Assembly: GCA_047651235.1 (NCBI GenBank)
Contig: CP178758.1
Span: forward strand, 30,001 to 62,000
Direction of reading: 5' to 3'
DNA from: Candidatus Electrothrix yaqonensis
Lineage (GTDB): Bacteria > Desulfobacterota > Desulfobulbia > Desulfobulbales > Desulfobulbaceae
DNA length: 32,000 nucleotides
This document shows, piece by piece, positions 3,005-23,367 of this stretch. Both the position numbers and the translations under genes were made by a program. How positions within the stretch are numbered: the stretch's first letter is position 1; every line of letters starts with the position of its first letter. Under the pieces are notes generated by a model. It did no database searches and had not been told where the DNA came from. It saw only the letters and a program-made list of their open reading frames with translations.

Positions 3005-3035
3005 GAAAATAGGACAGCCGGGCCGGACGCTGGCT

Positions 3036-3150
3036 CAAGTACCGTTGCCATACACCAAAAAACCGGGTAACGACAGGTATGCCACCCGGCAAACACCCGA
3101 TACAGAAAATACAGAAAGGCCGCGAGCAGGAGCTGGCGGCCATTTTATTA
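3036..3150 (+). repeat. two-hairpin intergenic repeat, copy 2
   Basis: Its 5' part of about 38 nt matches copy 1 (397-519) at roughly 85 percent, with the same architecture: a CCGGGT...ACCCGG hairpin followed by a GC-rich hairpin. Confidence 0.6.
3118..3150 (+). terminator. probable intrinsic terminator of ald
   Basis: GGCCGC(3118-3123), a 12 nt loop, GCGGCC(3136-3141), then ATTTTATTA. Confidence 0.5.
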
Positions 3151-3380
3151 CGATTTTTCAAGTTGTTTTAATGTTTCCTTTAAATTCTCTACATACATTG
3201 AATTTCTTACATAAAGACCCCTGTTTATCTTTTCATAATAATCACGTGATTTTTCAGCGTAATAAATCTTGTTTTTTAATTCAGCAACAAGGCATTTCTT
3301 TGTTTCCTTATTATTCATAACAACCCTCCCAATTGTTATACTGTACGATATTGTTTATCTTTTACATTACATCTGTATTA

Positions 3381-3902
3381 CTAATAGACACACTTGTAGT
3401 TTCCTCCTTTATAGTCCAATACTTTAGAATTTATTACATATAATTCCTGTTCTGGTACTCCGAATTTTTTTTCCACATAATCTGCACTTAACTTCTCGGT
3501 ATTTTGAGCGTATACAAATTTCATAAGCCCTTTTTGGTAAGTACAGTATATCCTGATCTCTTTATCTGTTGGCTCTATAACTTTTTGTTCAGGGACGGAC
3601 TGTTTGCCAACCTTTTTCTTTGTCGTTTTTGCAATCTTCTCCTCTTTCTTCTCGGTATTCAGATTGCATGTTAACGACTTTCTGCTCGTTTCAACAAAAT
3701 CAGCAACTTTTCTTCTGCCGGGTATCCACTCTATACAGCTCGGTTTTTCAGGCCACCAATCCGGCCTTTCTTCTGATGCGTTAAACACACCATTTTGATC
3801 TTGCCAGAGATACATCTCCCCATACGCATAATCGTTTACAGTTACAAAACTTAATAACACGAAAAAACCAAGAATTATATTACATCGAGAATATTTATAC
3901 AT
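3381..3902 (-). CDS. hypothetical secreted protein, N-terminal region DUF4124-like
   Basis: A strong RBS GGAGGAGG precedes the ATG at 3902 (MYKYSRCNIILGFFVLLSFV..., signal-like). MYLWQDQNGVFNASEE resembles the DUF4124 motif (Y-x-W-x-D-x-x-G-V), judged from memory only. The region is AT-rich. Confidence 0.65.
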   Translation of the reverse strand: MYKYSRCNIILGFFVLLSFVTVNDYAYGEMYLWQDQNGVFNASEERPDWWPEKPSCIEWIPGRRKVADFVETSRKSLTCNLNTEKKEEKIAKTTKKKVGKQSVPEQKVIEPTDKEIRIYCTYQKGLMKFVYAQNTEKLSADYVEKKFGVPEQELYVINSKVLDYKGGNYKCVY

Positions 3903-3929
3903 GAACCTCCTCCTTATCAATTATTTCAA

Positions 3930-4352
3930 TTATTTTGATTGACTCCTGCGGGATATCTTGTTTTTATGGATTTCTATTGCTCGACGATATTCTCTGACAA
4001 GTTCAAGTCGATATGAAACTTTCAGCTGAAAATAAATCGGACTGAGCATCAATATACGAATTACATCATGGAGACTCATCTGTTTATCACTTTCAGTGAT
4101 AGGAACAGGAGATGGAAATTTATTATCAGATGCTGAATTGTTATGACGGGGCAGGGTATTTCGGATGGTTAAACGAGTTCTGTTCGGTTCAGCCTTTTGT
4201 TCGGCTGTTGCATATCGGTAGTCGGTAAGTTCCGGATGATGGACGCGATGCTGCTTATGAGCAGTAGGGACTGAGACAGGACGGCGTAAAGCAGATTTGC
4301 TTATAAGGATAGCGGGATTATCCCGGCAGAATATTTTTTCCGTGGATATCAT
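3930..4352 (-). CDS. hypothetical protein (weakly supported ORF)
   Basis: A 140 aa ORF in the AT-rich insert with no recognisable motif. Its composition is atypical and it may not be expressed. Confidence 0.3.
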   Translation of the reverse strand: MISTEKIFCRDNPAILISKSALRRPVSVPTAHKQHRVHHPELTDYRYATAEQKAEPNRTRLTIRNTLPRHNNSASDNKFPSPVPITESDKQMSLHDVIRILMLSPIYFQLKVSYRLELVREYRRAIEIHKNKISRRSQSK

Positions 4353-4674
4353 AACACACTTCCCGGCGATTTATAAAAAAGCAGGTAACCCGGCGGTCTC
4401 CTTCTCTTCCGGGAGATCCGTGGCTTTCCGACACCGCCTCGCGACGGCTGTGGCTTTATCAGCTTTCCGGTATCGACCAGAAAGCGAAGTATATATTAAA
4501 ATCCATGCAAGTATTGTTCCTTTTTTAGTGTGTATTGTCAATATTGATTAGAAATGAATTCAACTACATTGAATTCTTCAGCTGAGATAGATGCTTTTTG
4601 TTTTTGCATTTTTTTTACCCGATTTCAATAAAAGATATTTTTTTACCTGACACCTATTATCAGAGGTCAAAAAT

Positions 4675-4879
4675 GTGTTGCTGTTGCTGATCTGGTCGTC
4701 GGGGCAGCGCTTGTTCCGGGCGGCAAGACACCGATATTGATCGGTCGTCAAATGCCGGGAATTCGCCCAGGCAGGATTAGATGTCTTTGTCAAACAGACT
4801 GCCGGACGTGCTGCTACGCTTAATATGCGCGAAGGGAAGCTGCTGCATCCTGTGGTAGCCAAGGCGTTTCCTGATCTGG
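4675..4879 (+). pseudogene. remnant of a second alanine dehydrogenase 3' end, with an internal deletion of about 200 bp
   Basis: 4685-4752 aligns with ald 2599-2666, and 4753-4879 aligns with ald 2867-2993 (ctgatctgg...caagacacc; tgccgggaa...gcgtttcctgatctgg). I estimate about 85-90 percent identity by eye. There is no start codon and the frame is broken. Confidence 0.85.
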
Positions 4880-5028
4880 CGGCGGCTGGCAGGGATATGA
4901 CCCGACACACGGCCTGGTCGTGACCGAGGAGCACATTCCCCTTGCAGCGAGCTTTACCTCTGCAGGGGCTGCTCCTGTAACCGGGAATTATCGCGGGACA
5001 GGTGCTTGGGCGGAGATGAAATTTTCTA

Positions 5029-5215
5029 TCACGATAAGAAACTGTTTACAAAAAACTGCTGATCCAGTCGTCTGACGAGAATACTGATCATGGAAATCTG
5101 AATCATCGCTTCACTGTTTTCCGTGAGCAGCTCATAATCATTTGAGTTTCTGCGGAAATTAAATATCCATACGAATAAGATCTGACGGATATACCTGCTC
5201 CTTCCGGGCTTCCAT
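5029..5215 (-). pseudogene. C-terminal remnant of an IS5/IS4-superfamily DDE transposase
   Basis: The minus-strand translation ...SRYIRQILFVWIFNFRRNSNDYELLTENSEAMIQISMISILVRRLDQQFFVNSFLS* resembles the conserved IS5-family tail (..ERxFxWLxxFRRLxxDYE..xExSEAMIxLAMIxLMLRRL). No upstream catalytic part is present. Confidence 0.6.
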
Positions 5216-5252
5216 TTTTTGCCTCCTGTCTCTATGATTCGTCGGATTGAGA

Positions 5253-6383
5253 TTAGAGGGTTATGCTGAACCGGGAGTTTTTTTTAAAACAGCTTGTCAG
5301 GTCGGAAGTCGCTAACGAACACTCAATCACCCCGTCCTCCGAGGTCACGAGATAAATATCCACCTGCAGGCCGGAGCACTGCTCCGCATACTCCCGGGCC
5401 CGCAGGCAAACCGCCCGGATCAGATCGGCCCTGCCTTGGGCCTGTAAAATCTGCAGAATCTCTCTGGCTGTGTTGGCTGCGGCCATGCGGGCGACGCTTT
5501 CCTGCTCCAGTCTCAGTTCACCGAGCAGACGGGCAGCCTGCTTCATCTCCAAGGCTCCGTTGCGCACATGGGTCTGGGGAATACACAAGGCGCACTTGAG
5601 GACTTTGGCCCACATACCGGCCAGGTGGATGCGGCGGAAGCCGTGCCGCTGCGCTGCAGTGAGGGCATAGGCCAGATAATCGCCCATCATCACCTGGGCC
5701 TCTTCCGGCAGATGCAGGATTTTCTGCACGGCCGCCTCCGAGGTGCGCCCCGTGGACAGGATGACCTGATCCAGTCCGGCAGCGCGGGCCACCTTCATGG
5801 AGGCGTCAACGGTATCGGTCCAGGCCTTGGCCGAGACCGGGCGGACAATGCCGGTGGTGCCGAGAATAGAAAGCCCGCCGAGAATGCCCAGCCGTTTGTT
5901 CAGCGTCTGTTCTGCCAGCTGCTCACCGTTGCGCACACTGACTGTGACAGCCAGCCGTACCGGCCTGTTCTGCCGCTCTGTCACTTCGGCCACGGCCTCC
6001 CGGATCATCCGCCGGGGACCGGGGTTGATGGCCGGTTCTCCCACGGCAACCGGCAGACCGGGCTTGGTCACGGTTCCCACCCCGGCACCGGCCCTGAGTA
6101 CAACCGTTTCTTCGCCTTCCTCCAGTTCCAGCTCTCTGACAGAAGCAAGGATCTCGGCCCCGTTGGTCACATCCGGATCATCTCCGGCATCCTTGATGAC
6201 GGACGCCATCGCGTTGCCTTCCTGCAGTTTGCAGGTATGCAGAAGAAAACTGTGCCGTTCCCCGTTGGGAAAAAGGATGTCTACCTGCTCAGGATGCTGC
6301 CCTGCAAGGAGCAGCAGGGTTGCCGCTTTCGCTGCAGCCGCTGCGCAGGCCCCGGTAGTAAAGCCGGATCGGAGGGTACTCAT
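5253..6383 (-). CDS. cbiD: cobalt-precorrin-5B (C1)-methyltransferase
   Basis: LRSGFTTGACAAAAAKAA is the typical CbiD N-terminus, and the length (376 aa) fits. Confidence 0.9.
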   Translation of the reverse strand: MSTLRSGFTTGACAAAAAKAATLLLLAGQHPEQVDILFPNGERHSFLLHTCKLQEGNAMASVIKDAGDDPDVTNGAEILASVRELELEEGEETVVLRAGAGVGTVTKPGLPVAVGEPAINPGPRRMIREAVAEVTERQNRPVRLAVTVSVRNGEQLAEQTLNKRLGILGGLSILGTTGIVRPVSAKAWTDTVDASMKVARAAGLDQVILSTGRTSEAAVQKILHLPEEAQVMMGDYLAYALTAAQRHGFRRIHLAGMWAKVLKCALCIPQTHVRNGALEMKQAARLLGELRLEQESVARMAAANTAREILQILQAQGRADLIRAVCLRAREYAEQCSGLQVDIYLVTSEDGVIECSLATSDLTSCFKKNSRFSITL

Positions 6384-11664: not shown

Positions 11665-11785
11665 GCAGGGAGGAGATGCAGGAACCTAATCCGGAAAGCC
11701 TTTGAGCAAAAATCATAAAAGAGGGGAAATCGTGTGGGTGACGGGAACAGAGGTGAGTTGCCGCAGCAGAAAAGTTGTTGGCGGG

Positions 11786-11857
11786 CTAATGCTGCAAATA
11801 ACCGGTGCAAATGGAGCGCAGCGGAATTTGCATCCGAGTTAATTTGCCTTGTTAGCG
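11786..11857 (-). repeat. attC site 1 (distal end of the array; R' box degenerate, ATTAGC)
   Basis: On the plus strand: gctaatgctgcaaataaccggtgcaaatggagcgcagcggaatttgcatccgagttaatttgccttgttagc. It shares the central atggagcgcagcggaat with attC 2. Confidence 0.7.
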
Positions 11858-11858
11858 C

Positions 11859-13592
11859 TTACATTGTTTCTATTATGCCTCTGAGTTCATCCAGTTTATA
11901 ATCTGAAATTTCACCATTTTGGTGCTTCACGATAATATTTAGCGGCTTTAAATCTTTTCTTTTTGGTTTTTCGATTCCCAAAAATGATTCGAAGTCATTC
12001 TCAAAAGCATAGATTGTTTTGGTAAAAGCTGTTCTCTTTTGTTCAATAAAAGAATTGATTATTCCGTGTATACCTGCATCTTCATCCGAATCAAGCATGA
12101 CAGAATGTTGTATGCCTAAGGCAGTCATCAATGTGATGCATCGATGTATATTGAATTTTCCTAATGTATCAAACAGATACATATGTTTTTCTCTGAGGTC
12201 AGGCCAATATTCATCAAGCAAGTAGTCTATAAATACTTTTTCTGATGTGCCCTCGCAAATAATAACCTTCTTAGCAAAGAACATTGCGGCTCTTTCAGAA
12301 TCTAACCACAAAAAATACTTAACAGCCTCTTCCTCTAATTTCGATGAATGACATGGATCATCTTCGCCGAGCTTGTCCTTTCGTATTCTTTTTTTTATGC
12401 CCTCGTCAATGTCATCCGAATTCAAACAATCACAAAATTTATTATAAAGGCCAAGGTTTGCATCAATCACCTTTGAAAAAATTTTATCTGTTATTTGAAA
12501 AGTTTCTGTTTTTCCGTTGTTTTTAGAAAGTCGTATTATTCCCGACAATTGAGATGCTTGCTTGCTTACAAAATGGGGAGAGTGACTTGAAATTAAGACT
12601 TGCTCAGGGCCTTTAGATGCAAGGGACCTTAGGCTTAGGTGAAGAGAGTTCTGTTGAGCAGGATGGAGAAATGCCTCAGGTTCTTCGAATAATATTAGTG
12701 TGAAATCGGGGTCGAAGTCTTTTTTCTTACCTGCTGTTGTTGCAGCATACTTAGCAGATAATTTAATCAGAGTGAAAATTAAATGTCGCTGAAGGCCTTG
12801 ACCAAATGAAGCAAGATTAATTTGTTTCCCACCAAGCCCAACATCCTCGATATAATGCGACAGAAGGTTTTTAACAATATCCTCAGGCTTTATCGTATTG
12901 ACTGATACGCCAAACTTAATGTTCCATAAATTTATTTCTGAATTAATGTCGTCAATAAGTGAATCAATAGAAAAGCCATCTTTGGATGATTCGGTTTTAA
13001 AATCAGTATTAAATGTGTCAAAAGCCGTCTTCAATCCGCCGAATGTAGGGCTCTCAAGGACGGCCCGTTTCATAACGAAATTGACCATTTCTCGAAATGG
13101 TGATGGCCCGGAGAGCTTTAGTGTTTCATCTGTTTTGCTAACAGCTGGAATGAATATAACCTTCCCCAACTTTGCTTGAGACACATTTTTTGCACCATAA
13201 AACAGATTAATTGACAAAACACCAGATTCATAAGCGTATATATTGCTCTGGGAAGATTTAACCAGTTCTTTGTTTGATGATTGAAAATATTTTCTAACCC
13301 TTAAGATTTTGTCAGAGGATTTATACTCATCTTTTAAGCTATCTTGTTCATCTTCTGTTGTTTCAAAGGCTAATTCAATCCAACTTTCTTCATCATCAAC
13401 CTCAAACTTTGGGAAATCAGTGTCTTGCTTATACTTAAGTCCTCCATCTTCATAAAAGAGCCTAAGTGCGGTAATGATATTTGTCTTTCCAGCATTGTTT
13501 TCACCTACCAACATTGAATAGTCAGATAGCTGGCACTCCACATCTTTGATAGATCGAATGTTATGAATGACTAGTTTTTTAAGTTTCATCAC
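11859..13592 (-). CDS. OLD-family ATP-dependent endonuclease (ABC-type ATPase fused to Toprim), stand-alone
   Basis: Walker A GENNAGKTN, Walker B/signature LILFEEPEAFLHP, SSHSPHFV, and C-terminal Toprim motifs VIICEGTSEKVF and DSDED. 577 aa. It is the only ORF in its cassette and no UvrD-like partner is nearby. Confidence 0.85.
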   Translation of the reverse strand: MMKLKKLVIHNIRSIKDVECQLSDYSMLVGENNAGKTNIITALRLFYEDGGLKYKQDTDFPKFEVDDEESWIELAFETTEDEQDSLKDEYKSSDKILRVRKYFQSSNKELVKSSQSNIYAYESGVLSINLFYGAKNVSQAKLGKVIFIPAVSKTDETLKLSGPSPFREMVNFVMKRAVLESPTFGGLKTAFDTFNTDFKTESSKDGFSIDSLIDDINSEINLWNIKFGVSVNTIKPEDIVKNLLSHYIEDVGLGGKQINLASFGQGLQRHLIFTLIKLSAKYAATTAGKKKDFDPDFTLILFEEPEAFLHPAQQNSLHLSLRSLASKGPEQVLISSHSPHFVSKQASQLSGIIRLSKNNGKTETFQITDKIFSKVIDANLGLYNKFCDCLNSDDIDEGIKKRIRKDKLGEDDPCHSSKLEEEAVKYFLWLDSERAAMFFAKKVIICEGTSEKVFIDYLLDEYWPDLREKHMYLFDTLGKFNIHRCITLMTALGIQHSVMLDSDEDAGIHGIINSFIEQKRTAFTKTIYAFENDFESFLGIEKPKRKDLKPLNIIVKHQNGEISDYKLDELRGIIETM

Positions 13593-13607
13593 AGTTCCCT
13601 ATCAGGC

Positions 13608-13678
13608 GCTAACGACTGAACTCACTGGTTTTTATGGAGCGCAGCGGAATAAAAATCCAGTGCAGTGATTTGTTATGT
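13608..13678 (-). repeat. attC site 2
   Basis: GCTAAC(13608-13613) gactgaactcactggtttttat ggagcgcagcgga ataaaaatccagtgcagtgattt GTTATG(13672-13677). The arms are imperfectly paired with bulged bases. Confidence 0.8.
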
Positions 13679-13712
13679 GTTCTTTTTTTATTCAGCAGTA
13701 TTCGAATCAATA

Positions 13713-14402
13713 CTAAACTGCTAATGCATTAACCAATTTATCGAAATAAGATACCAAAACACTCTTTATTTCATTTACGCAATTAAGATACCTTTTCAAA
13801 GTTTCTTCATCCTGTCCATCCGGCCATGGATTTGTAACGTCTCCACTAAGCCCAAAAAACTCTTTGAATAAATAAACTCTCTCGTTTCTTTGAGGAAATT
13901 TCAACTCAAGCATTTTGAGAACATCTTGCGACATTACTATAATCAAATCTGCGTTTTCAAATATATCCTTTGTGATTTGTCTACACTTATGATTAGACAA
14001 TAAATCTTTACCATATACTGACTTGATGGCATATTTAGCTCCATATGAAACTTTCAAATCAGAACTGTCACTCACTGCCATAGCTTTAATTTCTAATTTA
14101 AGGTTAAGCCCTTTTTTATTAAGAAGTTGTTCTGTAATTACCTTAGCAATTGGATCTCTACAAGTTCCACCAGTGCTTAGGTAAACAAGAACTTTTGATT
14201 TTTTAATTTTTCTTATTAATCTCGATATACCACCCCATAACAAAAGAAAACATGTTGGAATCAAAAGCAGACTAATCTTTGTCAACCAATTAATGTTTTG
14301 GAATTTAGGAGACAGCTCAAGATATAAGATTCCTAATACCCAAATCAAAGCAGCAGCTATAAGTTTGCTAAATACTGGATCTTTCCAAATTTTCTTTATC
14401 AC
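13713..14402 (-). CDS. membrane-anchored LMW-PTP/ArsC-fold protein with substituted catalytic residues
   Basis: The probable GTG start at 14402 avoids overlap with attC 3; the ORF-track start 14444 lies inside the attC. There are two N-terminal hydrophobic helices. VLVYLSTGGTCRDP aligns to the LMW-PTP P-loop V-C-x-G-N-x-C-R-S-P with Ser in place of the nucleophilic Cys. HKCRQITKDIFENADLIIVM matches, and VTNPW replaces the DPY acid-loop motif. Confidence 0.65.
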   Translation of the reverse strand: MIKKIWKDPVFSKLIAAALIWVLGILYLELSPKFQNINWLTKISLLLIPTCFLLLWGGISRLIRKIKKSKVLVYLSTGGTCRDPIAKVITEQLLNKKGLNLKLEIKAMAVSDSSDLKVSYGAKYAIKSVYGKDLLSNHKCRQITKDIFENADLIIVMSQDVLKMLELKFPQRNERVYLFKEFFGLSGDVTNPWPDGQDEETLKRYLNCVNEIKSVLVSYFDKLVNALAV

Positions 14403-14418
14403 ATTGTTCTCTCTTACA

Positions 14419-14489
14419 CATAACGACCAAGCTGTGCGGCGCAAACGAAGCGCAGCGTAGTTTGCGTCCGAACGAGCGCCTTGTTAGCT
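14419..14489 (-). repeat. attC site 3
   Basis: CATAAC(14419-14424)...gcgcaaac gaagcgcagcgta gtttgcg...GTTAGC(14483-14488). The TAA stop of the 222 aa ORF lies inside the core. Confidence 0.8.
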
Positions 14490-15152
14490 CTTTTCTGAAT
14501 CTTCTTCATCTGAAATATATGAAACCAGCATTCTACCAAGTGTAGTAAGGCTAGTTGTTTTACCCCGTTCCTCTGTCAAGCCGAGCCTTAAAAGCGTTGC
14601 TTTATAACTATCTTGCAATGCGGCCCTTTCATGCTGCTCTTGAGGTGCCCCCATTGTTCTGCTTATAGGATTAAGTATTTCCGGGTGTTTCTCTACCCAT
14701 TCAGAATGAGGCCCCTTACCAAGTACTGGGTTTAATGAATAGTAAATCAGCCAAACAATCTCTGGATCGGTGAGTTCTCTATACAAGTTGATTAGCTTCC
14801 GAGCCTCTTCATATTTCATCTCTTTTGCTGATAATGATTTTGCTACCAATCTAGCCAACCGCTCTTTTCTTTCCTTAGAAACAGATCTCGATGCTTGAAC
14901 TATTCCTTCCTCAAATATGTCGAGTCCCTCTTCAGCTTTGAGATGTTCTTTAAAGGAGGAAAATCGCTCATCTAAGTGAGCCACATTATTCTCAAGAGTC
15001 TTTAGGAAACTGACAACTCGCTCGAACCGCAGATTTGGCACTACTGCATCTAGCGTTTCCCCCACTAACGTTCCAATAAATGGGAGCGCGCCTGCCGCCG
15101 CTTTCGCAACACTAACCAATCTGTCCCTAGAGTTTGTTTCAAGCTGCTTCAT
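14484..15152 (-). CDS. hypothetical protein (single-gene cassette)
   Basis: A 222 aa, mostly helical ORF with RBS AAGGGG upstream and its stop codon embedded in attC 3. The N-terminal LPFIGTLVGETLDAVVPNLRFERV faintly recalls Abi_alpha/DUF4393-type proteins. This is unverified. Confidence 0.7.
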   Translation of the reverse strand: MKQLETNSRDRLVSVAKAAAGALPFIGTLVGETLDAVVPNLRFERVVSFLKTLENNVAHLDERFSSFKEHLKAEEGLDIFEEGIVQASRSVSKERKERLARLVAKSLSAKEMKYEEARKLINLYRELTDPEIVWLIYYSLNPVLGKGPHSEWVEKHPEILNPISRTMGAPQEQHERAALQDSYKATLLRLGLTEERGKTTSLTTLGRMLVSYISDEEDSEKS

Positions 15153-15169
15153 CCGAACCCCTTTTTAGA

Positions 15170-15260
15170 GCTAACGCATCACATCACCGGCAGCAAAAGG
15201 CAGAGCGACGAGGAACGAGGAGCGGCGCTTTTTGCTGTCCGAGTGCATGTGTTTGTTAGC
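15170..15260 (-). repeat. attC site 4
   Basis: GCTAAC(15170-15175) gcatcacatcaccggcagcaaaagg ... cgctttttgctgtccgagtgcatgtgttt GTTAGC(15255-15260). Its arms are closely related to those of attC 5. Confidence 0.85.
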
Positions 15261-15270
15261 ATTTTTATTG

Positions 15271-17262
15271 TCATATATCACATTTTAGCGACTGCATTCT
15301 GACAAGCTTTCCCCAACGCTCCCCTAGCAATGATATGCCATAAAGTGATGGATTTACTTCAAGATACCGATCAATAAGTGTCCGTGTTTTTTCTGTTATC
15401 TTATTTGTGGCACCATTAGCAGTATTGATTAGATAATAATCAAAAGTTTCTTTATTCCTTAAAGGAATTATTGCAATGACTTTTTTTGCCTCGACCATGT
15501 CCGGTATGCCGTTCAACCTATATAATTTTCTGGTTTCATGTTCATACGACATTCCATATCTCTTTAATAAAGGCAATAAATGTTCTCGCTGGGAAAATAC
15601 TGAAGAGGCATAGCTTTCTAGCTTATGTGCGTCAATGGTAAGTTTCTTACTCCACTCTTCTGCATCACTGCTACTTATGCCAGATGATAAAGAATATTTG
15701 TGCCATATCGACAAACAGCCTTTAGTTGCGACATCTATTGAAACGCCATGTTTATCAGGATTATAGAATACTGGCGAGCCATATTCTAATAAGAAACTTC
15801 CTGTGCCAAACGAACCAATATGCTTTGAGTTATTAATTACAAAATCGTATGTCTCTTTAGCGTCTTCATGTGTTTCACCTGGAAAACCAAAGAAAGTAAA
15901 GCAGTTTATAAAAATCCCACTGTCAGCTGCGGCAATCAGATTCTTTTTTATCGTATCTTTTGATGGGAAATTGGTTTTATTCATCAACCCCAAGACGCGC
16001 TCGGATGCTGATTCTAAACCAACATACATTACCAGAAAGCCTTTTTCATACAAATTACTAAATATCTCTTTTGAAAAAGACTCTTCAAAACGCATGATTC
16101 CAGAAAACGACCAACCACTTTGCTTTTTAGTTGGAAAAACGCGACCAATATCGCGTAATAAACGAGGTGGCATGGCCTCGTCATTAAAGCAAAAGTTGCT
16201 TACTCTATATTTGTTACTCAGCCTTTCTATTCTTTCCAAAAGCTGTCTTGTTTTTACATAATTAAACTTTCCGCCATAAACTTCGCTGTGTGTACAAAAT
16301 TCACACTTACCCCAATAACAACCTCGATATGATAATATTGGAAGTGTAACTTCAGAAGTAAAATATTTTTCGAAATCTATATCAGAAAAATCTGGATCAA
16401 CATCTACGCTAATATTGCGATAATCGTGAGAAAATTCACCATTAAAAACAGTGTTTCCAGACTCCATAAAATAGATATTGGGAACATCTTCAGTAAGGGC
16501 CTTGCCAGCACAATTGTTATTTAAAATAGCAGAACAAGGAATTTCCCCCTCTCTTTTGACGACTATATCAAAATAGATAGTAAACCATCTTGAAGGAATA
16601 GACGTTCGATCAAGCAATCTATATAGCACCGTACCGCCAACAACCACAGTTTTTTTTGTATTCTCTTTTAGTGCTTTTCCCATCATTAAAGTCATCAACA
16701 ATTGACTATAGCCAACACATGAAATCCCGATTATTGATGCGTTATGGACGTCAGGACTATCAAGGAAGCTCTCCACAAACCGTTGAAGGAGGCTATTTTT
16801 CTTTGATAGAATTTTTTCTAATTCGTCAACATAAAATCCTGATTTTGAATGCATTTCCATGCCGAATGGCGAAATAGAAACCGGTTTGGTAAGTAATGAA
16901 ATTGTTTCCAGGTATGAAGTCAATATTCGCGTTGCAATATAGCTGTTCTGTAAATACTTGTTATTATCAGATTCTCCGCCCTTTAATAATTCATGAATCG
17001 AGGTTCTTATATGGCGTATATTAGATATAGTCGCTCTAATTGCTTCTTTTTTTTGACAGTCAAAGCCATGATTATCCTTTAGCTCTTCCAACAGAATGTT
17101 TGCCGCTTCATCTGATAGTAAATAGTGATAAAAGTCTATGTTTGCATCAATACAACCAACGCGGTAGCCTTCATTTCGTAACCAGCCTGCAAGTGTGGAA
17201 ATAGTTAGCGCGGGTTGAAATGGACTCCATTGTGGAGGGAAAATTAGCGTTATATCATGCAT
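15271..17262 (-). CDS. B12-binding-domain radical SAM enzyme (putative peptide-modifying enzyme)
   Basis: The N-terminal MHDITLIFPPQWSPFQPALTISTLAGWLRNEGYRV and VVVGG are typical of the cobalamin-binding Rossmann-like domain of class B radical SAM enzymes. The cluster motif is RGCYWGKCEFC. The start at 17262 is preferred because the hairpin at 17289-17326 overlaps the longer ORF-track start. Confidence 0.8.
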   Translation of the reverse strand: MHDITLIFPPQWSPFQPALTISTLAGWLRNEGYRVGCIDANIDFYHYLLSDEAANILLEELKDNHGFDCQKKEAIRATISNIRHIRTSIHELLKGGESDNNKYLQNSYIATRILTSYLETISLLTKPVSISPFGMEMHSKSGFYVDELEKILSKKNSLLQRFVESFLDSPDVHNASIIGISCVGYSQLLMTLMMGKALKENTKKTVVVGGTVLYRLLDRTSIPSRWFTIYFDIVVKREGEIPCSAILNNNCAGKALTEDVPNIYFMESGNTVFNGEFSHDYRNISVDVDPDFSDIDFEKYFTSEVTLPILSYRGCYWGKCEFCTHSEVYGGKFNYVKTRQLLERIERLSNKYRVSNFCFNDEAMPPRLLRDIGRVFPTKKQSGWSFSGIMRFEESFSKEIFSNLYEKGFLVMYVGLESASERVLGLMNKTNFPSKDTIKKNLIAAADSGIFINCFTFFGFPGETHEDAKETYDFVINNSKHIGSFGTGSFLLEYGSPVFYNPDKHGVSIDVATKGCLSIWHKYSLSSGISSSDAEEWSKKLTIDAHKLESYASSVFSQREHLLPLLKRYGMSYEHETRKLYRLNGIPDMVEAKKVIAIIPLRNKETFDYYLINTANGATNKITEKTRTLIDRYLEVNPSLYGISLLGERWGKLVRMQSLKCDI

Positions 17263-17271
17263 TCTTGTTTT

Positions 17272-17326
17272 CCAAACAAAGATAAATACCATGAGCATCT
17301 CGATCTTAATACCAAGACGCTCATGG
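17272..17326 (-). terminator. attenuator/terminator-like hairpin between the peptide genes and the radical SAM gene
   Basis: Minus-strand CCATGAGC(17326-17319), a 22 nt loop, GCTCATGG(17296-17289), followed by TATTTATCTTTGTTT. Confidence 0.45.
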
Positions 17327-17346
17327 TAAAGATGGCTATCTTCATT

Positions 17347-17505
17347 TTAGTTATTGTTATTGTTTTGATACGTATCCGTCATTCTTAGAACTGAGTTTGA
17401 GGCTGAAAGCACTTCAAGCATATCCTCTTCGGGTAATTCTCGAAGTTTCTCCACAATTTCTTTCTGAAATGCTAAGGACGCCGAATCGGGTTGCTCATTA
17501 TCCAT
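17347..17505 (-). CDS. putative RiPP precursor peptide 2 (52 aa)
   Basis: Not in the ORF track. RBS GGAGGA lies 6 nt upstream of the ATG at 17505. Sequence: MDNEQPDSASLAFQKEIVEKLRELPEEDMLEVLSASNSVLRMTDTYQNNNNN*. It is a paralogue of the adjacent peptide. Confidence 0.65.
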   Translation of the reverse strand: MDNEQPDSASLAFQKEIVEKLRELPEEDMLEVLSASNSVLRMTDTYQNNNNN

Positions 17506-17507
17506 AG

Positions 17508-17675
17508 CTAATCCTCCGCAACAATTGCCTTATTATTGTTGTTTTGGTATTCAACCGCCATTTTTAAAATGGAATTATTAGCTTGAAGTACTTCTAGCAT
17601 GTCCTCGTCACTGAGGGTTTTTAGTTTCGCTACGATCTCTTTGTTAAAAGCAGCAGCTTTTTCTTCATTAGACAT
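17508..17675 (-). CDS. putative RiPP precursor peptide 1 (55 aa)
   Basis: RBS AAGGAG lies upstream of the ATG at 17675. Sequence: MSNEEKAAAFNKEIVAKLKTLSDEDMLEVLQANNSILKMAVEYQNNNNKAIVAED*. It shares F-x-KEIV-x-KL..L..EDMLEVL...NS-x-L-x-M...YQNNNN with peptide 2. Confidence 0.7.
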   Translation of the reverse strand: MSNEEKAAAFNKEIVAKLKTLSDEDMLEVLQANNSILKMAVEYQNNNNKAIVAED

Positions 17676-17777
17676 AGTTCGTCTCCTTATTAAGGCTTTT
17701 GGAAAGTGATTAAACAAATGCTCTCGATGTGAAAACTAAATAGTATGCATAGGCCTCACCTCCTTTTCTTTATTGAT

Positions 17778-17960
17778 GCTAATGCCGAGTTGACCGTAAT
17801 TTTCCTGGTATAATGGCCGCTTGCGGTTGATTATACCAGGAAAATTTCGAGTCCAACGTTTGGTTCCGAAGGCGCGCAGCGCCGCAGGAATCAAATGTTG
17901 GGCCGGTACGGTCAACTCGGCATTCCAAAGGCGTGGCCCGAAGGGGCGCGCCTTTGGAAC
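17778..17960 (-). repeat. 183 bp structured ORF-less element, copy 1, inserted in attC 5
   Basis: I found no differences from 20306-20488 when comparing by eye. It splits GCTAA|C of attC 5. It contains a 16 bp long-range stem (aatgccgagttgaccg / cggtcaactcggcatt), a perfect 17 bp AT-rich hairpin, a 15 bp hairpin and a 9 bp GC hairpin. Confidence 0.9.
17830..17856 (-). promoter_or_regulatory. candidate extended -10 promoter inside element copy 1, facing the peptide/rSAM cassette
   Basis: On the minus strand: TTGGAC(17856-17851), a 15 nt spacer, then TGGTATAAT(17838-17830). A mirror TGGTATAAT lies on the plus strand at 17806-17814. Confidence 0.35.
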
Positions 17961-18051
17961 GCCACACATCACCGGCAGCAAAAAGTAGTGTGGCTGTAGC
18001 GAAGCGTAAGCCGCGCTGCTTTTTGCTGTCCGAGTGAATGTGATTGTTAGC
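17960..18051 (-). repeat. attC site 5 (its GCTAA half-core is displaced to 17778-17782 by the 183 bp element)
   Basis: c gccacacatcaccggcagcaaaaag ... gctgctttttgctgtccgagtgaatgtgatt GTTAGC(18046-18051). The TAA stop of the 115 aa ORF lies inside the core. Confidence 0.8.
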
Positions 18052-18394
18052 TTTTATCTTTCTCAACTACAGCTATATGTGCAGGTGGGCGAGTTCTTGA
18101 CATAGGCTGTAACGTTGGTTGTGTAGGTTGTGGCGTTCCAGGAGCCGCTCCGCCTCCAACCAGAATTACTACAGATGGAGTAAACCCGGGTATTTGAACA
18201 GGTGTACCTTGTTGTGGGACAAACGCAGAAGCATCATAGCTTTGAACTGATGGTTGTGTTCCTCCAATTTCCACTTCTACATCTTTTCTTGAACCATCAT
18301 CCAGCTCTAATTGAGTTCGAATTACTTCTCCAGTTTGATTATCAACCGTCAATACATATGTTGTCACATTCGATTTTTCTTCTTTCTTGCTCAT
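18047..18394 (-). CDS. hypothetical 115 aa protein with a Pro/Gln/Thr/Gly-rich C-terminal half (possible large precursor or substrate protein)
   Basis: RBS GGAGG precedes the ATG at 18394 (MSKKEEKSNVTTYVLTVDNQTGEVIRTQLELDDGSRKDVEVEIGGTQPSVQSYDASAFVPQQGTPVQIPGFTPSVVILVGGGAAPGTPQPTQPTLQPM...). The stop is embedded in the attC 5 core. The gene overlaps the upstream rSAM gene by 53 nt. Confidence 0.6.
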   Translation of the reverse strand: MSKKEEKSNVTTYVLTVDNQTGEVIRTQLELDDGSRKDVEVEIGGTQPSVQSYDASAFVPQQGTPVQIPGFTPSVVILVGGGAAPGTPQPTQPTLQPMSRTRPPAHIAVVEKDKS

Positions 18395-20282
18395 TGCAAA
18401 CCTCCATTTGGATTGTGGGGAAATTAGAAAATATTTTGGATAGAATTGCGTCCCCAATTATGAGCAAACCTATCCACTTTGAACCTGCTTCTATTACCAA
18501 GTTGGATTCTTTTAGCTGTTTTAAAAACCTATTCAAATGAAACTGCTGTATGTTTCTTTTATTTAATTCTTTAGCCAGAGAACTAAGGCTGATAGGCTTG
18601 TCTAGAAGCGCTAAGATAATAGACTCCTCATCACTAAAGTAATGATATCTCTTTTTTGAAATAATTCTTTCATCTACAACAATAGAGGTAGAATCCTTAT
18701 AAGTAAGGAACTCAAGCCTTGGCCTTTTATGTGAGTAATGTTTCCATTGCTGACAAGCGCTTACTAATGACTTGCTTTTTCGGTTTAGATTAAACCCTTC
18801 GCTGTAATCAAACTCAAAATAATAAGCAATATTATTGATTTCTTCTTCCGTTAACCTGTATACCTCTTTATATGTTTTCATAGGGCGAATATTTAGAAAT
18901 CCATGCTGATCAGGGCTGGTAAAGTTTGGACTAAAACGATCAAGACGAACTGCCGCGGTAGCTTGCGGTGGTTCTAAGTGATGAATATTCCAGACAACAT
19001 CCGTTTGAAATTGATAACTACTCTCATTTTCATTAGGAAATCCAAATAATAAGTTCCAAGCAATACCAACACCGTATTGTTTTGCCCATTTCAACAATGC
19101 AATATTTTGCGCTCCAGACACTCCCTTCCCAATCAATTTTAATGTGTCATCAGAGAAACTCTCGATCCCTGGTTGAATTGAAATTACCCCTGCTTCTTTA
19201 AGTTTTTTAACGTCACTTCGCTTGATATTAGACTTAGTTTCAAAGAAGATTTGTATATCATGTGGGATGTGGGATAATTCCTTGATAAAAGTTTTAAAAT
19301 ACTGATGATCAATAATGTTATCCGTAAAGTCTATTTTTTTTACATCATATTTTTTCGATAGAGCAAGTAACTCATAAAGCGCTCTATTTGGCGACTTTCT
19401 CCTATAGGACATAGTCCTTCCGTTTAGGCCACAAAATGTACAGTGACTTTTCTGGCCCCACCAACAACCTCGGGATGATTCAATAAATATTCCTTTTCGA
19501 CCTGACAAAGAATAATTTAGGTTTTTTACATAGTTAAAATAATCATCAAAATCTGGATAAGGAAGGCTGTCTAAATTCTCAGTTAAGTCATATGGTGAAT
19601 TGATAAAAATCTTCCCATTCTTTCGTATGGAAAAACCATTAGTTTCTTCTTCACAGTTATGTATTTTTCTTCTAAGGAGCTCTGGAAAAGAAGAGTCGGC
19701 CTCACAGGTCGATACGTAATCGATATGGTTAAAGCTCTTCAATAGTTGGCTCCCCATTTCCGATTCACAATTTGCACCACCAAAACATATCGAAATAGAG
19801 GGGAAATTATTTTTTATCTCTCTCGATAAGTAGAGACTAGGAAATGTTTGTTCGAAAGTATTTGTAAAACCTACCACGCCATATTTAAACCACGGCGCCG
19901 ACTTTAGACATAGCGAGATAAAATGATTAACTACCCCTCGAATGTCAATAACTGCGTCAAGAAGATGCTTAGGCATAGGCCAGCCACTTTCTAAAAGAAA
20001 GTTGTCGATATATGAAAAATCCGACTTGGAGAGCTCATAATATTCTGATGAGAAGACCCACTCTCCTAGTAACAGGTCATTTGGCACTACAAACCCATCA
20101 ATTTCCAAAGTGCCACACATGAATTCATAACGTTCCGAAGATATTAATTTGGCAAACAGAACATTGAAGTCAAAAATGTCAACATTATGACCTTCATTTT
20201 CCAGAATTGATTTTAGAAGCCCCAAGGCCAGAGATGGTCTTTCAGCTGAAGAGAACGGCATATTTATTAATGCAACATTCAT
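18342..20282 (-). CDS. B12-binding radical SAM enzyme of the RiPP-maturation type (TIGR03975-like), with a C-terminal winged-helix/RRE-like region
   Basis: MNVALINMPFSSAERPSLALGLLKSILENEGHNV..., GEWVFS and SSRGCWWGQKSHCTFCGLNG (C-x7-C-x2-C) match my memory of the rSAM_ocin_1 family. The C-terminal FSDEESIILALLDKPISLSSLAKELNK...FLKQLKESNLVIE looks like a PqqD/RRE-type wHTH. Confidence 0.8.
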   Translation of the reverse strand: MNVALINMPFSSAERPSLALGLLKSILENEGHNVDIFDFNVLFAKLISSERYEFMCGTLEIDGFVVPNDLLLGEWVFSSEYYELSKSDFSYIDNFLLESGWPMPKHLLDAVIDIRGVVNHFISLCLKSAPWFKYGVVGFTNTFEQTFPSLYLSREIKNNFPSISICFGGANCESEMGSQLLKSFNHIDYVSTCEADSSFPELLRRKIHNCEEETNGFSIRKNGKIFINSPYDLTENLDSLPYPDFDDYFNYVKNLNYSLSGRKGIFIESSRGCWWGQKSHCTFCGLNGRTMSYRRKSPNRALYELLALSKKYDVKKIDFTDNIIDHQYFKTFIKELSHIPHDIQIFFETKSNIKRSDVKKLKEAGVISIQPGIESFSDDTLKLIGKGVSGAQNIALLKWAKQYGVGIAWNLLFGFPNENESSYQFQTDVVWNIHHLEPPQATAAVRLDRFSPNFTSPDQHGFLNIRPMKTYKEVYRLTEEEINNIAYYFEFDYSEGFNLNRKSKSLVSACQQWKHYSHKRPRLEFLTYKDSTSIVVDERIISKKRYHYFSDEESIILALLDKPISLSSLAKELNKRNIQQFHLNRFLKQLKESNLVIEAGSKWIGLLIIGDAILSKIFSNFPTIQMEVCNEQERRKIECDNICIDG

Positions 20283-20305
20283 TTATGGCTCCTGTCTCAT
20301 TTAAA

Positions 20306-20488
20306 GCTAATGCCGAGTTGACCGTAATTTTCCTGGTATAATGGCCGCTTGCGGTTGATTATACCAGGAAAATTTCGAGTCCAACGTTTGGTTCCGAAGG
20401 CGCGCAGCGCCGCAGGAATCAAATGTTGGGCCGGTACGGTCAACTCGGCATTCCAAAGGCGTGGCCCGAAGGGGCGCGCCTTTGGAAC
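20306..20488 (-). repeat. 183 bp structured ORF-less element, copy 2, at the promoter-proximal end of the array
   Basis: No differences from 17778-17960 by eye. It is flanked by GCTAA| and |C, so removing it restores GCTAAC (GGTTAGC on the cassette strand). Confidence 0.9.
20358..20384 (-). promoter_or_regulatory. candidate extended -10 promoter inside element copy 2, facing the rSAM gene at 20282
   Basis: Same sequence as 17830-17856. TGGTATAAT lies about 75 nt upstream of the ATG at 20282. Confidence 0.35.
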
Positions 20489-20765
20489 CATTGATTATCA
20501 GAGAATCAGTCCTTATAGTCACCGAAACCTGATATTCTCAGGGAGAAATACCCTGAGATTCGACTTATCAGTATATTTTCCCAGATAACTTGAATTCTTT
20601 ACTGTTATCTGATAATATATTCCTGAATAATTTATTATCAGAGCACCATTATCTGTCTCTAAACGCATCTTTCAGATATGTCAAGAGAAAACACAAGAGG
20701 AATGAAATATCGGGAAAAGATGGGAAAAATGAGCTGATCATACGTTACTGATTTTAATTTCCGTC

Positions 20766-23290: not shown

Positions 23291-23367
23291 TGGTGGGCCT
23301 ACTTGGACTCGAACCAAGGACCTACCGGTTATGAGCCGGTGGCTCTAGCCAGCTGAGCTATAGGCCC
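23291..23367 (-). tRNA. tRNA-Met (anticodon CAT); a lysidine-modified tRNA-Ile2 cannot be excluded
   Basis: Minus strand: GGGCCTATAGCTCAGCTGGCTAGAGCCACCGGCTCATAACCGGTAGGTCCTTGGTTCGAGTCCAAGTAGGCCCACCA. It is a 77 nt cloverleaf with a 7 bp acceptor stem, GTTCGAGTC T-loop and encoded CCA. The anticodon stem is not of the initiator type. Confidence 0.93.

Follow-up and report, generated by a model that had tools for sequence, protein, structure and literature searches.

The attC sites (59-base elements) of integron cassettes range from 57 to 141 bp, and they are regarded as working through their structure: bulged bases, a spacer that is not paired and a simple stem at the apex. Both the unpaired central spacer and the extrahelical bases are considered important for the integron integrase IntI, for its activity as well as for its strand choice; from the work of Bouvier in 2005 and MacDonald in 2006, IntI reportedly recombines the bottom strand. 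The layout of R and L boxes as the two "simple sites" of the 59-base element is said to go back to Stokes et al. in 1997. Other elements also use attC sites as targets, including the group IIC-attC introns, which are ribozymes of about 2 kb with a reverse transcriptase. Both these introns and the insertion sequences of the IS1111-attC type are reported to enter attC near its 5' end, in antisense orientation to the cassettes (PMC3001079). Multi-copy conserved non-coding cassettes represent a further known class (PMC1382264, PMC11014356), and the paralogous conserved non-coding cassettes of Vibrio have been proposed to be selfish or regulatory (PMC1382264). During analysis of a 32,000-nucleotide stretch of the Candidatus Electrothrix yaqonensis genome (assembly GCA_047651235.1, contig CP178758.1, positions 30,001 to 62,000; hereafter the window, to which all unqualified positions refer) we encountered a 177-bp structured element that is present twice within a cassette array. 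Judged from its sequence and relatives, it is probably a gene-less integron cassette that consists essentially of its own recombination site and is moved by IntI.

The two copies lie within stretches (17778-17960 and 20306-20488) that are identical at 183 of 183 bases, and divergence starts directly in the flanks, in agreement with a preliminary description of this DNA in which no difference between the copies had been seen. The repeat unit in the window is a 177-bp insertion within the 183-bp identical stretch, located at GCTAA|C, where the bar marks the crossover. Copy 1 with its flanks reads GATGCTAA[177 bp]CGCCACACATCACCGG (longer right flank CGCCACACATCACC), and the intact attC 4 of the same array (GCTAAC at 15170-15175) reads GAGCTAAC|GCATCACATCACCGG (extended reading GAGCTAAC|GCATCACATCACC). 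Because the flanks of copy 1 align with attC 4, deletion of 17783-17959 restores a normal attC 5, as had been claimed when the insertion was placed precisely at the crossover. The exact cut is ambiguous by 2 nucleotides (nt), owing to a common AA at both junctions, and no target-site duplication beyond this AA is present at either window copy. The right flank of copy 2, CCATTGATTATCAG, is homologous to the attI junction found beside intI in five other loci (L008, L025, L026, L029 and L030), so that copy 2 occupies the first junction of the array, again as previously proposed. No trace of intI was found in the window by tblastn or Pfam. Copy 2 evidently sits at an attI whose intI was lost, and the array as a whole is, on present evidence, an integrase-less cluster of attC sites.

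Searches for relatives by plain sequence similarity were unproductive. BLASTN with the window element against plasmids and phages, and with one metagenome relative against plasmids, returned nothing. An exact 19-mer across the crossover gave four matches in a genome contig collection, all by chance and inside unrelated sequence, a 20-mer from hairpin B (see below) had no match in metagenomes, and a scan of viral contigs returned a single palindrome outside the family. A gapped pattern, CCGAGTTGACC-N(100-130)-GGTCAACTCGG, which requires 11 nt of each inverted-repeat arm, matched 15 metagenome loci, of which five (L007, L008, L011, L012 and L014) are true relatives that carry a GC-rich version with the same architecture; the other ten are chance matches or fold-back palindromes. 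Two more relatives, L022 and L023, were recovered when translations of the relatives were used as queries. Open-frame translations of the element itself led, in protein databases, to XOF33609.1 and XOF33598.1 of Ca. Electrothrix sp. YB6, encoded 13 genes apart, in which a stretch of 45-61 residues, N-terminal or central, results from translation straight through the element. These "hypothetical proteins" are evidently annotation artefacts. One of them reads from an attC-like stretch through the element into GGCATTAGC, with the TTAGC flank as in the window, and both YB6 copies, which are known from the protein translations, have the same two substitutions relative to the window. The family thus comprises seven metagenome relatives and the two YB6 copies besides the two in the window. 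A covariance model run on 18 loci around related intI genes yielded no further copies, most of these contigs holding little array.

The element measures 177 bp in the window, and the intact relatives measure 170-172 bp; the window copy is 45-52% identical to the relatives. A covariance model built from the five pattern-derived relatives alone nevertheless matches copy 1 at 60.1 bits (E = 2.9e-9) and copy 2 at 54.9 bits (E = 3e-8). One relative, L022 (766-1000), has no hairpin C, owing to a 23-nt deletion between GCG repeats; it adjoins an attI, and the adjacent intI frame diverges after about eight codons and appears truncated, so this is probably an immobilised copy in a decayed integron. Copies are identical within each of the two Electrothrix genomes and differ between them, a pattern that indicates recent intragenomic movement or homogenisation.

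All ten junctions for which DNA sequence is available are located at xxAA|C of an attC or attI crossover (left flank YAA, then the element, then C). The left flanks read GCTAA, GCCTAA, GCATAA, GCCCAA or GGCTAA, and the right flank is either an ordinary attC body or the sequence CCAYTGATTAAC...CCCTGATAAT, which is the attI of one integron lineage and lies directly upstream of intI in the five loci mentioned above. In four of these (L025, L026, L029 and L030) ordinary cassettes join attI at the same xxAA|CC point, giving junctions without the element. At L008 the element occupies the first-cassette position, and an integron integrase gene (TIGR02249, 433 bits, cut-off 265) lies 107 bp away. The orientation is uniform, the folding strand being always opposite to the cassette genes. 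IntI is known to prefer insertion by attI x attC recombination, and the three of ten junctions at which the element is the first cassette, next to attI, fit this preference. The IntI clade of the relatives' integrons is represented in metagenome-assembled genomes (MAGs) labelled Anaerolineales, Deltaproteobacteria, Methylomirabilota and Nitrospirota. Where a related intI occurs in Methylomirabilota-labelled MAGs (L033 at 3011-5937; L034-L040), genes for IS91-type (Y2) and IS110-type (DEDD) transposases lie in the cassette array beside it.

The arrangement of boxes within the element closely follows that of an attC site. In the relatives, one arm carries the element's own crossover as ...CTCGGGCG|TTCGCACC... 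(GGTCAAC TCGGGC G|TTCGCACC) and the other as ...GGTGCGAA|C GCCCGA GTTGACC.... Six of the seven have the canonical AAC/GTT in their R boxes (GCGAA|C and G|TTCGCA), L022 having lost its R'' box together with hairpin C. The L boxes (GTTGACC/GGTCAAC) are invariant and inverted in all copies and lie 5 nt (window) or 6 nt (relatives) from the R box. As in attC, the crossover is G|TT (AA|C on the bottom strand), R and L boxes form inverted AAC/GTT half-sites with 5-6 nt between them, the site is imperfectly palindromic and folds on its bottom strand, and it is located at cassette boundaries and at attI beside intI. In the window and in YB6 the R boxes instead contain AAT/ATT (GGAA|T and A|TTCCAA), through a compensated C:G to T:A change. 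The substitution of AAT/ATT for AAC/GTT noted in the preliminary description accordingly holds for these two genomes but not for the family, and is a lineage-specific change.

The joined ends of the window element, CGCCTTTGGAA+TGCCGAGTTGACCG, are the exact reverse complement of 17908-17933 and would form the perfect 25-bp stem that had been predicted for them. In every copy the corresponding stem of 25-27 bp is perfectly paired, its spacer included, and has no extrahelical bases, in contrast to the neighbouring attC sites, which are bulged; the earlier remark that the stem has none of the bulged bases of a normal attC therefore applies to the whole family. The element also differs from attC in its apex, which is branched and carries two conserved hairpins in place of a simple, variable stem-loop, and in its proportions, with a site of about 150 nt and a "cargo" loop of only 3-15 nt.

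The strength and conservation of the fold are apparent from several measures. In the window element 77 pairs account for 154 of the 177 nt. When both strands were folded, the + strand had the lower energy with RNA parameters (-124.2 kcal/mol, z = -16.9, against -101.8 and z = -11.4 for the - strand) and with DNA parameters (-73.4 against -65.0). Across the family 98.6% of pair cells are standard, as opposed to 85% in shuffles and 29-41% with partners slid, and 34 of 72 pairs have changed on both sides; these statistics lean towards structure, since the alignment was fitted to the covariance model, but the margin is large. The fold is thus evidently conserved despite a sequence identity of about 48%. 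Strand-specific cells comprise 25 G·T, which pair only on the + strand, and two A·C, which pair only on the - strand, in a consensus structure that was itself derived on the + strand. Because of this disparity and the better + strand energies, the folding strand is taken to be the + strand (bottom strand of the array), and the functional strand is not ambiguous as had been thought.

The preliminary description was correct in regarding the interior as highly structured, although the details of its helices require revision. The long-range stem is 15 bp (17783-17797 with 17908-17922) and encloses hairpins A and B, hairpin C lying to its right (Table 1). The 9 bp GC hairpin that had been described as separate is merely the inner part of hairpin C, and of the two C-UUCG-G loops thought to be apical one (CUUCGG) is indeed so, the other being located in an internal loop of hairpin B. 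Twelve of 16 pairs in the helix of arm a are invariant across the family. Hairpin A, by contrast, shows both-sided change in 16 of 23 pairs. It resembles the apex of the ordinary attC sites in these arrays, with a GCGMAGCG loop, and the relatives carry TTGCTAAC...GTTAGCAA in place of the TGGTATAAT arms, a triplet change (GCTAAC/GTTAGC in the relatives versus ATAAT/ATTAT in the window) that mirrors that of the R box. Hairpin B, in which the G·T wobbles cluster, matches the main recombination stem plus hairpin C at about 40 of 57 positions and is evidently a paralogue, or degenerate duplicate, of the main stem. The b' arm of hairpin C is CGCCTTTGGAA, which constitutes the R' box and ends at the right-hand crossover GGAA|C. 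Hairpins B and C change in concert between lineages (GTTCGCRCCGCC versus TTCCRAAGGCG).

No conserved open reading frame (ORF) is present, the incidental open frames being different between lineages. A real small protein was rejected because start codons vary among the copies, the lineages differ in their open frames, and it is at the nucleotide level that substitutions are compensated. A covariance search of the window and the relatives against Rfam gave nothing at the gathering score and nothing useful at permissive thresholds. The best match, to the Pseudomonas small RNA P35 (34.5 bits against a gathering score of 70; 17919-17976, - strand), spans hairpin C together with the beginning of attC 5 and probably reflects no more than hairpin resemblance.

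We favour the interpretation of the element as a cargo-free cassette because of its fixed orientation at cassette boundaries, its first-cassette position by intI and the canonical boxes and spacing of the relatives; of the possibilities listed in the preliminary description, that of an atypical long attC or ORF-less cassette is the one best borne out. In the excised circle the ends would join into the perfect 25-27-bp stem, its bottom strand running from R' (..GAA|C; in the window ..GAA|T) through the 5-6 nt spacer to L' (GTTGACC). This R'/L' arm would pair with L'' (GGTCAAC), spacer and R'' (G|TTCGCA; in the window A|TTCCAA), with the R-box end closed by the loop of 3-15 nt, the sole "cargo", and the L-box end opening into a branched apical region formed by hairpins A and B. 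The integron integrase would cut the folded bottom strand at AA|C, with exchange against attI or against another attC. For a target xxAA|C the products would be target-AA|T(C)GCC... on the left and ...GGAA|C-target on the right, which are exactly the junctions observed. The two window copies may represent recent insertions, or one insertion and one duplication, brought about by an IntI that is encoded elsewhere or has since been lost, and the persistence of the element is most likely that of a self-propagating cassette.

Several observations weigh against this interpretation. The stem has neither an unpaired central spacer nor extrahelical bases, the site span of about 150 nt exceeds the usual attC range, the R boxes of the Electrothrix lineage depart from the otherwise invariant AAC/GTT, and the window contains no intI. 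In arm a/a' and at the base of hairpin B, sequence conservation is stronger than a mere apical spacer would call for, which hints at an extra function. Only about ten copies are known, and five of the relatives came from a pattern that requires the inverted repeat, so that the conservation of this repeat is inflated.

A non-autonomous mobile element that homes to the attC core without IntI, for example an IS110/IS1111-type miniature inverted-repeat transposable element (MITE) guided by a bridge or seek RNA, or one mobilised by another enzyme, could also account for some of these features. The AA at both junctions is what IS110-type core duplication would leave, identical copies are expected of a recently active transposable element, and the position of one repeat at the terminus and the other 37 bp inside the right end is reminiscent of the subterminal repeats of IS1111 elements (PMC11187229). 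The IS1111-attC elements ISPa21, ISPst6 and ISKpn4 likewise reside inside attC in one orientation, have a subterminal inverted repeat and form circles. They encode a DEDD transposase and a seekRNA, however, and insert between the L and R boxes near the attC 5' end, whereas the window contains no gene for a DEDD or any other transposase. ISKpn4 (from plasmid NZ_CP044204.1) inserts elsewhere, between GGCTTGAA| and |TGAATTGTTAGAT, its ends and its repeats (GGACTCTCCCC/GGGGAGAGTCC) are unrelated to those of the element, and the inverted repeat of the element was not found in the sequences of the PMC11187229 supplementary files. The ten targets have only YAA|C in common, which is far too little for RNA guidance, and the fold has almost no internal loops able to pair with a target. 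Furthermore, an inverted GCTAAC is present at the other end of every attC here and no copy is found there, and the relatives show the exact box layout of an IntI-type site. A novel attC-targeting element of this kind, as suggested in the preliminary description, is thus not needed and we consider it highly improbable. A classical MITE was rejected because the right repeat lies 37 bp inside the end and there is no duplication past the common AA, and an IS200/IS605-type palindrome-associated element because the hairpins on the left and on the right are unrelated, the right one ending exactly where the element does. A retron non-coding RNA, a group II intron remnant and a Xer/dif module were rejected on size, motifs and context. 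Group IIC-attC introns share with the element insertion in the attC bottom strand, antisense to the cassettes, but the element is located at the 3' crossover of attC, the end opposite to that used by the introns. Rfam detected no signal of a group II intron, HEARO or known riboswitch in the element.

It is also conceivable that the element is chiefly a functional structured nucleic acid that only travels as a cassette, either an RNA from the bottom strand (antisense to the cassettes, with the same sense as intI) or a folded single-stranded DNA that binds IntI and titrates or regulates it. Strong covariation combined with a one-strand G·U bias is the classic sign of a functional RNA or single-stranded fold, and the sequence constraint on arm a/a' and the hairpin B base, together with the concerted change of hairpins B and C, points in the same direction, as does the fact that at three of the ten junctions the element is the first cassette, immediately preceding attI and intI in the intI sense. 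For the DNA variant, two attC-like rods would offer up to four IntI binding sites. The strand bias is, however, equally predicted by bottom-strand DNA recombination, most copies are found mid-array and not beside intI, and there is neither a family-wide promoter or terminator nor an Rfam match even at permissive thresholds. An RNA-bearing cassette, as previously entertained, therefore finds no backing in Rfam, and we regard this explanation as distinctly unlikely, though less so than transposition. An additional role as a promoter cassette firing into the downstream cassette, which would be compatible with the cargo-free interpretation, is possible for the Electrothrix variant only and remains somewhat doubtful. 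Hairpin A of this lineage has been remodelled to carry the extended -10 consensus TGnTATAAT on both strands (on the cassette strand TGGTATAAT, the complement of 17830-17838 and 20358-20366). The motif is kept as TGCTATAAT in YB6 despite a substitution (inferred from NFPAII versus NFPGII), and wherever the downstream flank of an Electrothrix copy can be read (three of three cases), a gene in the same orientation begins about 12-60 nt beyond the element. Both intI and the Pc promoter are gone from the array, and the remodelled hairpin may drive downstream cassettes after this loss; sense-strand promoters on gene-less cassettes are documented for Vibrio (PMC11014356) and Treponema (PMC6557892). 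A simple sigma-70 scan found no -35/-10-type promoter, the nearest TTGACC being only 13 nt from the -10 motif. Such cassette promoters are stated not to be predictable in silico (PMC11014356), and those of cable bacteria may follow other rules. The seven relatives lack TGnTATAAT, and a family-wide promoter was rejected since they have TTGCTAAC where the window has TGGTATAAT; the promoter-bearing cassette of the preliminary description survives in this restricted form.

As a cargo-free cassette the element has its closest counterparts in the gene-less cassettes of Vibrio, which likewise have no gene, occur as several paralogous copies per array and are highly conserved between related hosts; the element is present twice in the window and twice in YB6. 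The published hypotheses of selfishness, promoter activity or RNA function are also the same. In contrast, the Vibrio cassettes tested in PMC11014356 are 491-666 bp and contain 335-515 bp of non-attC sequence, of which the element has none. The Vibrio families are reported not to occur outside vibrios, whereas the present family spans Electrothrix and GC-rich metagenome integrons. We found no description of the element family in the searchable literature or in Rfam. It would therefore be known in kind, as a conserved non-coding cassette, and new in having no sequence outside the site, an unbulged stem with a paired spacer, a branched apex containing a duplicate of the stem, and a fold conserved from a cable bacterium to GC-rich environmental integrons. 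It is conceivable, though rather unlikely, that the family forms a distinct class of IntI substrate, a self-propagating "naked attC" of about 175 nt that recombines without bulges or an unpaired spacer. With its two paralogous R/L rods, which would provide as many as four half-site pairs for integrase binding, it could self-synapse, titrate or regulate the integrase, or serve as a building block of attC sites or cassettes, and it would have spread between phyla with one environmental integron lineage.

Since the element keeps the R/L layout without the irregularities of attC and without a gene, it offers a natural test of which attC features are needed. It is also a candidate selfish cassette beyond Vibrio, the conserved multi-copy non-coding families described so far being from Vibrio arrays, and through it a cassette array of a cable bacterium is linked to an IntI/attI lineage that is very widespread in the environment. 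Should the Electrothrix variant prove to carry a promoter, this would show how cassettes continue to be expressed in an array without intI and Pc. In practical terms, the covariance model can be used to annotate the element, which explains the spurious "hypothetical proteins" in YB6 and also breaks in short-read assemblies. In the Logan assembly SRR31704081, for example, which contains the same strain, the cassette contig stops 30 nt inside the element on both sides, in line with a collapsed repeat. One contig of the attI side (L001, 2820-2837) includes only 4 nt of the element before it stops (...AATGG|TTCC), as against 30 nt in the cassette contig L006, and these different stop points may reflect attI heterogeneity in that sample.

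Table 1. Parts of the element and features of the surrounding cassette array in the window.
Feature	Position	Strand	Remarks
Element copy 1	17783..17959	+	177 bp, at the R' crossover of attC 5; + is the folding strand and the bottom strand of the array
Element copy 2	20311..20487	+	Same sequence as copy 1; at the attI junction, first-cassette position
GCTAA, left half of the split R' box of attC 5 (bottom strand)	17778..17782	+	Its C is at 17960; compared with intact attC 4
Arm a of long-range stem	17783..17797	+	5-nt spacer GCCGA and L' box GTTGACC (17789-17795)
Hairpin A	17798..17846	+	17+4 bp; TGGTATAAT on both strands (17806-17814, +; 17830-17838, -)
Hairpin B ("rod 2")	17848..17905	+	20+5 bp; GTCCAAC-GTTTG-GTTCCGA...GGAAT-CAAAT-GTTGGGC
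Arm a'	17908..17922	+	L'' box GGTCAAC (17910-17916), spacer TCGGC, into R'' box ATTCCAA (17922-17928)
Hairpin C (b, loop, b')	17923..17959	+	16 bp; b = TTCCAAAGGCG, continuing the R'' box, whose first base A is at 17922
Cassette array, low GC	11785..20310	-	Every gene on the - strand
attC site	11785-11856		Bulged GCTAAC...GTTAGC-type palindrome of the array
attC site	13608-13677		Bulged GCTAAC...GTTAGC-type palindrome of the array
attC site	about 14419-14488		Bulged GCTAAC...GTTAGC-type palindrome of the array
attC 4	15170-15260		Homologous to attC 5 (repeat families D2 and D4)
attC 5 body	17960..18051	+	Ordinary attC with bulged bases; GTTAGC end at 18046-18051
attI remnant	20488..20600	+	CCATTGATTATCAGAG... 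with TTATCAG repeats; no intI after it

The array lies in a low-GC island (36-41% GC, against about 55% in the host), and its + strand is identified as the bottom strand because the attC bulges are on the 3' arm of that strand and all genes are on the - strand. The attI remnant, which taken more broadly extends over 20488-20765, shows homology to the attI of an integron lineage widespread in the environment and is followed by an RNase H gene. The last attC of the array (11785-11856) reads GCTAAT...GTTAGC, with AAT for AAC and a G·T with its partner, and so matches the base change in the R box of the element.

Two unusually large cassettes (15271-17717 and 18047-20282, about 2.3 and 2.6 kb) each encode a radical-SAM enzyme, of 646 or 675 amino acids, one of which has a weak match to a B12-binding domain. 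Small ORFs of 136 and 69 amino acids are also present in them, and these may be peptide-modification cassettes similar to those for ribosomally synthesised and post-translationally modified peptides. The last cassette (11859-13592) encodes an OLD-family ATPase/TOPRIM nuclease, a defence-type gene in the form of a cassette. Elsewhere in the window there is a cyclic di-GMP-I riboswitch aptamer at 4381-4464 (- strand; 49.9 bits, gathering score 35), and a tRNA gene is located at 23294-23367 (- strand), about 2.8 kb from the attI end of the array, past genes encoding NIF3, a zinc-ribbon protein and RNase H.

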